A DNA stretch of 32,000 nucleotides from Puniceicoccales bacterium (GTDB lineage: Bacteria; Verrucomicrobiota; Verrucomicrobiia; Opitutales; JAIRLG01): positions 1 to 32,000 of the forward strand of contig JAITRB010000007.1 of assembly GCA_031288595.1 (NCBI GenBank), written 5' to 3'. Made by a program: the position numbers and the translations under genes. Below, one piece after another: positions 13,003 through 13,102 of the stretch. The notes under the pieces are model-generated. The model saw only the letters and a program-made list of their open reading frames with translations, was not told the DNA's origin and made no database searches. Each line of letters opens with the position of its first letter. Within the stretch, counting starts at the first letter, position 1.

Positions 13003-13102
13003 CGACCGGCTTTCGATTCCTGCGGAATCGGCGGCCCGCTTTGCGGGCCGCACAGGAGAGCGAGAAAAATGAATTTTTCTCACTCTCCTGGAAAGCCGGT
13101 CG
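13003..13102 (+). repeat. cloverleaf nested-palindrome element, copy 4
   Basis: Closing stem of 12 bp, CGACCGGCTTTC (13003-13014) with GAAAGCCGGTCG (13091-13102). Hairpins: GATTCC-TGC-GGAATC (13015-13029); GCGGCCCGC-TTT-GCGGGCCGC (13031-13051); a long hairpin at 13053-13090 with one C/A mismatch and loop TGAA. Confidence 0.85.

Follow-up and report, generated by a model that had tools for sequence, protein, structure and literature searches.

A repeated four-way-junction element between the divergent ftsK and tRNA-Val genes of a termite-gut Puniceicoccales bacterium, a candidate structural boundary

Why should an element of ∼100 nt that can fold into a cloverleaf lie between two divergently transcribed genes? 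The question arises from contig JAITRB010000007.1 of a Puniceicoccales bacterium, the first 32,000 nt of which (hereafter the window) were analyzed; the similarity of the encoded FtsK places them in the termite-gut Puniceicoccales (Verrucomicrobiota). The window holds six such cloverleaves (Table 1). Five of them follow the 3′ end of a gene or tRNA gene at a distance of 45–230 nt; the exception is copy 4, which is situated between ftsK and the divergent gene for tRNA-Val. The initial annotation, made from the DNA letters and their open reading frames (ORFs), had placed copy 4 at 69 nt from ftsK and 201 nt from tRNA-Val, had noted that no recognized gene ends beside it, and had taken this location as an argument against a purely terminating role. 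Both distances were reproduced, the former because the ftsK start is supported by full-length homologs, and the annotation of the region again contained no gene end next to the element. As detailed in the following, copy 4 truly belongs to a family of intergenic repeats, ∼100 nt long and restricted to this lineage, each of which folds as a single strand into a nearly perfect four-way junction.

The four-way junction was the minimum-free-energy fold of copy 4 on the plus and the minus strand alike. The minus strand, folded as RNA, reached −74.0 kcal/mol (z = −13.4), and the plus strand, folded as DNA, −45.9 kcal/mol (z = −12.2); in either case, none of 200 shuffled sequences equaled the value. 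The long hairpin contains a single mismatch, C·A on the plus strand, which is a G·U pair on the minus strand. A covariance model trained on eight members of the family (R1) scored copy 4 at 74.1 bits on the plus strand. Thus, the cloverleaf that had been recognized in the bare sequence at 13003–13102 was confirmed by the folds of both strands and by the model. Its kinship with other copies was equally evident from their sequences, as the annotation had claimed: the GATTCC/GGAATC stem recurs in copy 2 as GGATTCC-CAA-GGAATCC, and the medium stem is shared with copy 6, where the hairpin reads GGCCCGC-AAA-GCGGGCC and the loop becomes TTT when read on the minus strand.

The family is dense in the window. 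Copies 1 to 5 carry their hairpins in the order short-medium-long on the plus strand, whereas copy 6 has the reverse orientation. With a minimum score of 38, a descriptor scan found six cloverleaves in the 32-kb window versus four in 1.5 Mb of unrelated DNA, three of the latter on one Clostridia contig (L130), and a covariance-model search with all filters switched off recovered exactly the six window elements. With R1, family members scored between 50 and 98 bits (four members that had not been used for training, 50–55 bits), a garbled and a truncated copy 37–38 bits, and copies 1 and 3, which form a subfamily of their own, 19–23 bits. The best score in 1.5 Mb of control sequences, many of which had been preselected for containing the medium hairpin, was 29.7 bits.

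The main-family consensus reads ...GCCTTTG, GAGCCC-NNN-GGGCTC, GGCCCGC-NNN-GCGGGCC, a variable long hairpin, and CAAAGGC.... In an alignment of 12 members, which was fitted to the model (each sequence also folds on its own into the cloverleaf by minimum free energy), 96.9% of the pair cells held standard pairs, compared with 72% after shuffling and 40–56% when the partners were slid against each other. Changes on both sides were seen in 31 of 40 pairs, and none of 500 shuffles reached any of these measures. All 18 pairs of the long helix covaried. The initial annotation had remarked that the A/T-richer long hairpin of copy 4 indicates tolerance of widely varying sequences. The medium helix (core GGCCCGC/GCGGGCC) and four pairs of the outer stem, in contrast, were nearly invariant across the 12 members. 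Sequence is conserved in the short hairpin, the medium hairpin, and the junction-proximal part of the outer stem; the distal part of that stem and the long hairpin differ freely among copies, yet remain paired.

Hairpin modules are shared among the copies in a mosaic pattern. In the subfamily of copies 1 and 3, the cloverleaves are 86% identical and the flanks ∼72%, with a compensatory change from A-T to G-C in the medium stem. Both copies are embedded in a repeat unit of ∼400 nt (window 4030–4390 and 10100–10460), and their short hairpin, CTTTGC-NNN-GCAAAG, resembles the CTTTG/CAAAG junction of the main family. A cloverleaf also lies within 500 nt of each of the three tRNA genes of the window. 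Rfam contained no match at the gathering threshold, and up to an E value of 1 only spurious hairpin-level matches (HIV_FS2, mir-3127, and Metazoa_SRP) were obtained. No family member was found in the viral contigs, plasmids, and phages searched. The pattern CTTTG..GCCCGCNNNGCGGGC..AAAG had 124 matches in metagenomes, all of them chance GC-rich hairpins; none folded like the family or exceeded 30 bits with the model. The family is apparently undescribed, being missing from Rfam and from the literature searched.

The relatives closest to the window by FtsK identity are the metagenome-assembled genomes (MAGs) L001 and L203 (85%), followed by L002/L207 and L003 (∼68%). All of them carry cloverleaves; in the available DNA of the relatives L204, L205, L206, and L210, the family was not found. 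Exact matches to FtsK, to GlgP, and to the product of an ORF at the right end were not on record, and AtpA and the GNAT protein matched only short Logan contigs from the same species. An ortholog of copy 4 occupies the equivalent place upstream of ftsK in L203. The short stem (6/6) and the medium stem (9/9) are identical in the two, and two of the three loops differ, the medium loop reading AAA in copy 4 and GGC in L203 on the minus strand. In the long stem, one pair has changed on both sides (A-T to G-C) and another on one side only; a further position is paired in only one of the two copies, the mismatch in L203 being A·C on the sense strand. The outer stem of L203 is shorter, with the junction-proximal GGCTTTC/GAAAGCC retained. 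The sequence of L001 starts within its copy 4 ortholog, and the short hairpin of copy 4 is identical in L203 and L001. On the tRNA side, the flank of copy 4 could not be aligned with that of L203, which has ∼390 nt of low-complexity repeats at this place versus ∼150 nt in the window. There, a degenerate GGCTGG/TTTTT expansion with several outer-stem half motifs (CCGGCTTT) occupies L203:78-470, and at L203:572-690 a 62-nt ftsK-proximal block is tandemly duplicated. The ortholog of copy 5 (L207:4289-4382) is identical to it in the outer stem (11/11) and the short stem (6/6), and differs by double-sided changes in the medium stem (one) and the long stem (six); the protein encoded next to it, lipase-like, is only 63% identical.

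In L002 and L003, tRNA-Val and ftsK are divergent as well, but their spacer of ∼125 nt has both conserved blocks that border it in the window and no cloverleaf; copy 4 is also missing from the tRNA-Val/ftsK spacer of L204. Because L002 and L003 keep both blocks in the ∼125-nt spacer without the element, copy 4 is regarded as an insertion. Sequence comparison thus shows that copy 4 and the fast-evolving spacer were inserted in the middle of an ancestral ∼125-nt divergent spacer, leaving the promoter-proximal blocks intact, and that the helices of copy 4 have been under constraint ever since. Among the findings that would speak against its reading, the initial annotation had named a recent insertion absent from sister strains and without a phenotype. 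This applied to the relatives at ∼68% and to L204, in which the element is lacking, and it failed for those at 85%, in which the element is conserved under constraint.

Other positions have changed as well. Copy 3 has an ortholog in L203; L001 instead has a different, inverted cloverleaf downstream of ftsK. The order of tRNA-Leu and copy 6 is swapped in L209 (window 19857–20328 versus L209:1-440, with ∼90 nt of flank shared), the lipase-like proteins of the window and L209 being 81% identical, and the cloverleaf near tRNA-Val flanks that gene on one side in the window but on the other in L003. Several public contigs, independent of one another, break off within a cloverleaf, namely, L081 at its end (corresponding to window 4223), L001 at its start (window ∼13035), and L209 at its end (the copy 5 ortholog). 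The start of L001 at the cloverleaf is garbled poly-C/poly-G, and many contigs of relatives are only 2–4 kb long. The cloverleaves seem to break short-read assemblies of this lineage.

Presence, absence, and replacement that differ among close relatives, and the lack of the family in L204, L205, L206, and L210, would be expected if the cloverleaf were selfish and non-autonomous: an enzyme encoded elsewhere that recognizes structure (an HUH/Y1 transposase, a RAYT-like enzyme, or a recombinase) would mobilize it in the form of folded single-stranded DNA, the short and medium hairpins would be the recognition sites, and copy 4, having landed at a permissive site between two promoters, would be without function for the host. 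The mosaic sharing of hairpin modules, the strand-symmetric pairing by Watson-Crick pairs only (see below), and the breakage of public contigs within cloverleaves, as at repeats, also agree with this explanation. So does the lack of a target-site duplication, which is expected of peel-and-paste Y1 elements: no adjacent direct repeat of at least 4 bases was found at 15 elements, the true boundaries of which are uncertain because more than the element itself distinguishes the filled from the empty copy 4 site. The 32-kb window encodes no transposase, integrase, or reverse transcriptase; a relative does contain the remnant of a Y1 transposase gene (L207:1332-1643, minus strand; NF033573, 88.9 bits, 99 of 126 profile positions). 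This sole Y1 gene, however, is a truncated ordinary TnpA of the IS200/IS605 type, for which the RAYT model yielded 22 bits at a cutoff of 80, and lies 2.6 kb from the nearest cloverleaf. It has a low GC content and no cloverleaves at its flanks, and it lies upstream of the gene for the lipase-like protein. The termini of the cloverleaves, moreover, are unconserved, and the orthologs are perfectly paired with an identical core even where the neighboring protein has diverged (copy 5) or the flanks can no longer be aligned, whereas neutral passengers would decay. Purely selfish DNA is, on this evidence, an unlikely explanation, albeit one to be reckoned with.

An ordinary terminator is another explanation to be weighed. 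Copy 4 would then end a minus-strand transcript, either read-through from lpxK across the antisense strand of tRNA-Val or an unannotated small RNA at 13103–13300. Its polarity is that of the copies downstream of genes, the sole wobble pair of its long stem is on the minus strand, relatives have cloverleaves directly downstream of lpxK, and the location of the other five window copies past 3′ ends fits as well. Yet no U-tract was present within 15 nt past the outer stem on either strand, in copy 4 or in any other copy, and a terminator scan did not call copy 4. An efficient terminator at copy 2 would silence atpA, because the gap of 35 nt to the start codon leaves no room for a promoter. The copy 6 ortholog of L209 is likewise flanked by divergent genes, with the 5′ end of tRNA-Leu on one side and the lipase start on the other. 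Copy 4 itself is 450 nt away from the lpxK stop, the 3′ end of the operon on the minus strand (only the antisense tRNA gene intervenes), and it does not correspond in position to the lpxK-proximal elements of the relatives: the cloverleaves downstream of lpxK in L002/L207 and L003 are on the other side of tRNA-Val. Neither an ORF nor an Rfam family was found in 13103–13300, and the long-stem mismatch of L203 is A·C on the sense strand. Because U-tracts are missing, copy 2 is close to atpA, the L209 copy lies in a divergent region, and copy 4 has no annotated gene end beside it, the family is unlikely to consist purely of intrinsic terminators. For copy 4, an ordinary terminator is considered highly improbable.

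In all five co-directional contexts (copies 1, 2, 3, 6, and the L002a element), the hairpins follow each other as long-medium-short in the direction of transcription, and copy 4 has this polarity on the minus strand, that is, toward ftsK. Despite the inversion of copy 6, the GC skew has one and the same sign throughout the window, which suggests that orientation follows transcription, not replication. As the polarity of copy 4 matches that of the other copies, its location alone leaves room for a boundary role on the minus strand. The argument of the initial annotation from the divergent location therefore held in part: it is upheld by the lack of a gene end and of a U-tract, and weakened by the polarity, by lpxK ending 450 nt upstream, by the cloverleaves that relatives have downstream of lpxK, and by minus-strand hairpins in between.

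Whether such a role would be exerted by RNA or by DNA is a separate matter. In 15 elements, the long-medium-short strand forms 646 Watson-Crick and 9 G·U pairs, and the other strand 643 and 17, respectively (a G·U share of 1–3%), at equal folding energies. The slight G·U excess follows the G/T-rich plus strand, not the sense strand, and thus points to mutational bias instead of selection on RNA from one strand. This symmetry is compatible with a structure at the level of DNA, with a function on both strands, or with templated correction from arm to arm; none of the three accounts for the conservation of the core sequence. In both the short and the medium hairpin, the loop is a triloop closed by C-G; read on the long-medium-short strand, it is often GAA or GCA, a type known to make DNA hairpins very stable. 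One could imagine that negative supercoiling, generated between the two divergent promoters (ftsK and tRNA-Val), extrudes the palindromes on both strands, and that these then serve as a supercoil buffer, as an insulator, or as a target for a protein that binds junctions or binds DNA as a dimer. The strict Watson-Crick pairing, equal on both strands, the form of the short and medium hairpins (6-N3-6 and 7-N3-7 palindromes with C-G-closed triloops), and the stability of the copy 4 DNA fold are in line with this, as is the fact that two elements, copy 4 and the one in L209, occupy divergent regions, for which the twin-domain model predicts the strongest negative supercoiling. Most copies, however, have neighbors that are co-directional or convergent, an arrangement that does not favor extrusion; the variable long arm and distal outer stem would have no part in sequence-specific binding of a duplex; and the polarity relative to transcription would be unexplained. 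Extrusion as the basis of function is therefore considered improbable.

The reading preferred here, and held tentatively, is that the cloverleaf is a cis structural boundary element rather than an intrinsic terminator, a function we infer by analogy. Such an element would be akin to REP, Correia, or bcr1 elements. Once its region became single-stranded or was transcribed, the element would snap into a highly stable closed junction, which could act as a boundary, as a block to read-through RNA polymerase and 3′-5′ exonucleases, or as a double-strand-specific processing site. Copy 4, facing the minus strand, would protect the ftsK promoter against transcription that comes in from the side of lpxK and the antisense tRNA, and the role of polar boundary or insulator is the most likely one for it by this line of reasoning. 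A protein probably recognizes the conserved module made up of the junction core and the short and medium hairpins; the long arm would need only to be a helix.

Several observations weigh against this preferred reading. The quick turnover (copy 3 replaced in L001, tRNA order swapped in L209) is the behavior of mobile DNA. The strand-symmetric Watson-Crick pairing favors a cause at the DNA level or a mutational one (templated correction between arms) rather than selection acting on a single RNA. For the polarity rule there are only five informative loci (two-sided p about 0.06), so that it is no more than suggestive; two cloverleaf loci lie in divergent regions, and no partner protein was found for the cloverleaves. 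A broader proposal, which we consider rather doubtful, is that the cloverleaves are an undescribed class defined by the closed four-way junction, with a sequence-specific core (junction, short hairpin, and medium hairpin) that a dedicated protein would read and a long arm that varies freely yet is kept perfectly paired, and that they serve either as a mobile or recombination site specified by structure or as a transcript boundary independent of a U-tract. The former option could explain the swaps in the order of cloverleaf and tRNA gene.

Among known systems, bcr1 of the Bacillus cereus group is the nearest precedent by analogy, and REP/BIME, Correia, and ERIC elements may be seen as functional analogues. 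bcr1 (∼155 bp) is a transcribed, MITE-like (miniature inverted-repeat transposable element) repeat with a cruciform-like fold that is maintained by compensatory changes (Delihas 2011, PMC3184786). Like bcr1, the cloverleaf is multicopy and intergenic, its placement is not conserved among relatives, and its branched fold shows compensatory changes. bcr1, however, is transcribed and consists of two independent stem-loops with 5-bp flanking direct repeats, whereas the cloverleaf joins three hairpins in a closed four-way junction and showed no direct repeats; the two share no sequence similarity, and the host belongs to another phylum. With REPs, BIMEs, and REPINs, the cloverleaves have in common that they are short, GC-rich, dense extragenic palindromes, mostly at gene ends and without target-site duplication; roles in mRNA stabilization, termination, and DNA topology have been proposed for those elements, and they are recognized as folded single strands. 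A REP is a single imperfect hairpin of 20–40 nt, headed by GTAG or CGTC (PMC3733652); a REPIN forms one long hairpin. The cloverleaf, a 100-nt four-way junction, is four-armed and has no GTAG/CGTC head at the foot of any stem, so that assignment to REP/BIME was rejected. Taken together, a branched variant of REP-, MITE-, or bcr1-like structured repeats is the best reading of what the cloverleaves are.

Correia/NEMIS, ERIC, and other MITEs resemble the cloverleaves in size (∼100–150 bp), inverted-repeat ends, vicinity to genes or promoters, and strain-variable presence, the last of which was found here for copies 3, 4, and 6 across L001, L002, L003, L204, and L209. Transcripts of Correia- and ERIC-type MITEs form long duplexes that are cut by RNase III. 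These elements differ from the cloverleaf in having conserved terminal inverted repeats, target duplications, and one long hairpin; a MITE with conserved terminal inverted repeats was rejected, since the distal outer stems differ among copies and conservation is found at the junction (GCCTTTG/CAAAGGC). Intrinsic terminators are likewise very stable, GC-rich structures, and most cloverleaves lie shortly past gene or tRNA 3′ ends as they do, but intrinsic terminators share neither the branched form nor the lack of a U-tract, the occurrence in divergent regions (copy 4 and L209), and the vicinity to a start codon (copy 2).

Further candidates were dismissed. As in integron attC sites, which are recognized as folded single strands, structure is kept while sequence and length vary; attC, however, is a single imperfect hairpin with extrahelical bases and R boxes, accompanied by cassettes and an integrase, none of which was seen here, and this is an analogy only. 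ARAGORN and Rfam found only three true tRNAs even at E values up to 1, and the loops of 3–4 nt and the 12-bp outer stem are unlike a 7-bp acceptor stem with D, anticodon, and T loops. A retron noncoding RNA was discarded, as there are six copies and no reverse transcriptase in the window, leaving a topological likeness only. Cuckoo RNA (RF02344) consists of two to four adjacent hairpins with CCUCCUCCC loops and no multiloop (PMC4615179); the cloverleaf has variable triloops and a multiloop, and was therefore not assigned to it.

The Clostridia contig that matched the descriptor, L130, is of gut origin (48% GC, NifS closest to Ruminiclostridium and Eubacterium MAGs) and carries GC-rich cloverleaves of its own, with three near-equal hairpins of 10–13 bp with triloops inside an outer stem of 9–16 bp. 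The Puniceicoccales model gave only ∼22 bits on an L130 cloverleaf, so the architecture is probably independent in origin. Another repeat, with a long terminal stem around GCTTTGCG.AGGT.AAGGAGGAGCCCGC-NNN-GCGGGCGGGGGACACGGAGCAAAGC, was noticed on unrelated metagenome contigs (L098:5522-5608, L103:126-219, and L115:223-305); it surfaced only through a match to the search pattern.

The surroundings of copy 4 bear on what it could act upon. The conserved block between copy 4 and the ftsK start is kept in L001 and L203, and a related block, TTGACAG...GAAAT, is present in L002 and L003, both without copy 4 at this spacer. No convincing sigma-70 hexamers were seen in the ftsK/tRNA-Val spacer, for which reason promoter positions were deduced from conservation only. 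If the block at 12950–12983 holds the promoter, copy 4 would sit just upstream of it, outside the ftsK mRNA. Three weak terminator-like hairpins with T-rich tails are located between tRNA-Val and copy 4 (13149–13212, minus strand); the 1-kb region scanned contained four terminator-like matches versus 1.3 expected from shuffles. The JGI gene call for ftsK (P0006) comprises 500 aa only; since homologs back the full ORF of 816 aa with its 4TM domain, the start in the public annotation is apparently placed too far downstream. Elsewhere in the window, signs of genome decay were noticed at 9700–10070, 3034–4460, and 30050–31360. Downstream of ftsK, there is the remnant of an ORF of 107–124 aa that is intact in L204 and L203, and two stretches of 1.3–1.4 kb are without a convincing ORF.

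Table 1. Coordinates of copy 4 and its parts, of the other cloverleaves, and of the genes and spacer elements around copy 4 (window positions unless a contig is given).
Feature	Position	Strand or arrangement	Basis or remark
Cloverleaf copy 4, whole four-way junction	13003..13102	short-medium-long on plus, long-medium-short on minus	folds and model R1
Copy 4 outer stem, 5′ arm CGACCGGCTTTC	13003..13014	partner 13091-13102	fold
Copy 4 short hairpin GATTCC-TGC-GGAATC	13015..13029	followed by G	fold; 6-bp stem
Copy 4 medium hairpin GCGGCCCGC-TTT-GCGGGCCGC	13031..13051	followed by A	fold; 9-bp stem
Copy 4 long hairpin CAGGAGAGCGAGAAAAAT-GA-ATTTTTCTCACTCTCCTG	13053..13090		17-bp stem, A/T-richer
Copy 4 outer stem, 3′ arm GAAAGCCGGTCG	13091..13102		fold; 12-bp outer stem
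Copy 1 (c1/c3 subfamily)	4123..4231		230 nt downstream of xseB
Copy 2	6599..6715		78 nt past Mur ligase stop, 35 nt before atpA start
Copy 3 (c1/c3 subfamily)	10194..10298		184 nt downstream of ftsK
Copy 5	17602..17700		between convergent ybeY and lipase-like gene
Copy 6	20226..20328	opposite orientation	45 nt downstream of tRNA-Leu
ftsK, 816 aa	10483..12933	−	ORF; start backed by full-length homologs P0001 and P0002 (98–100% coverage)
ftsK-proximal conserved block GATTTGGCCATCGACAGTTTCGGGAAATCCCCCA (minus strand)	12950..12983	−	presumed ftsK promoter or leader
Fast-evolving spacer, copy 4 to conserved tRNA-Val upstream block	13103..13250		partial outer-stem half motif GCCGGCCGCTTTCC
tRNA-Val(GAC), divergent from ftsK	13304..13380	+	tRNA search
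lpxK, last gene of minus-strand operon	13553..14833	−	Pfam LpxK, E = 1.9e-79
L130 cloverleaves	L130:1773-1878, 8330-8438, 9723-9809, 12700-12800		one in divergent intergenic region

What follows from these elements depends on what they do. If they are only selfish DNA, they still represent a novel structural form of REP- and MITE-like repeats. If the family is functional, it would mean that bacteria can use a closed four-way junction, beyond the hairpin, as a repeated cis element, and it would be a natural example of a sequence-conserved core beside an arm conserved only in its pairing. Copy 4 offers a natural test, one divergent promoter pair being available with and without the element across related genomes. 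In either case, the cloverleaves appear to fragment the public assemblies of termite-gut Verrucomicrobia, and recognizing them is of practical value for binning and annotation.

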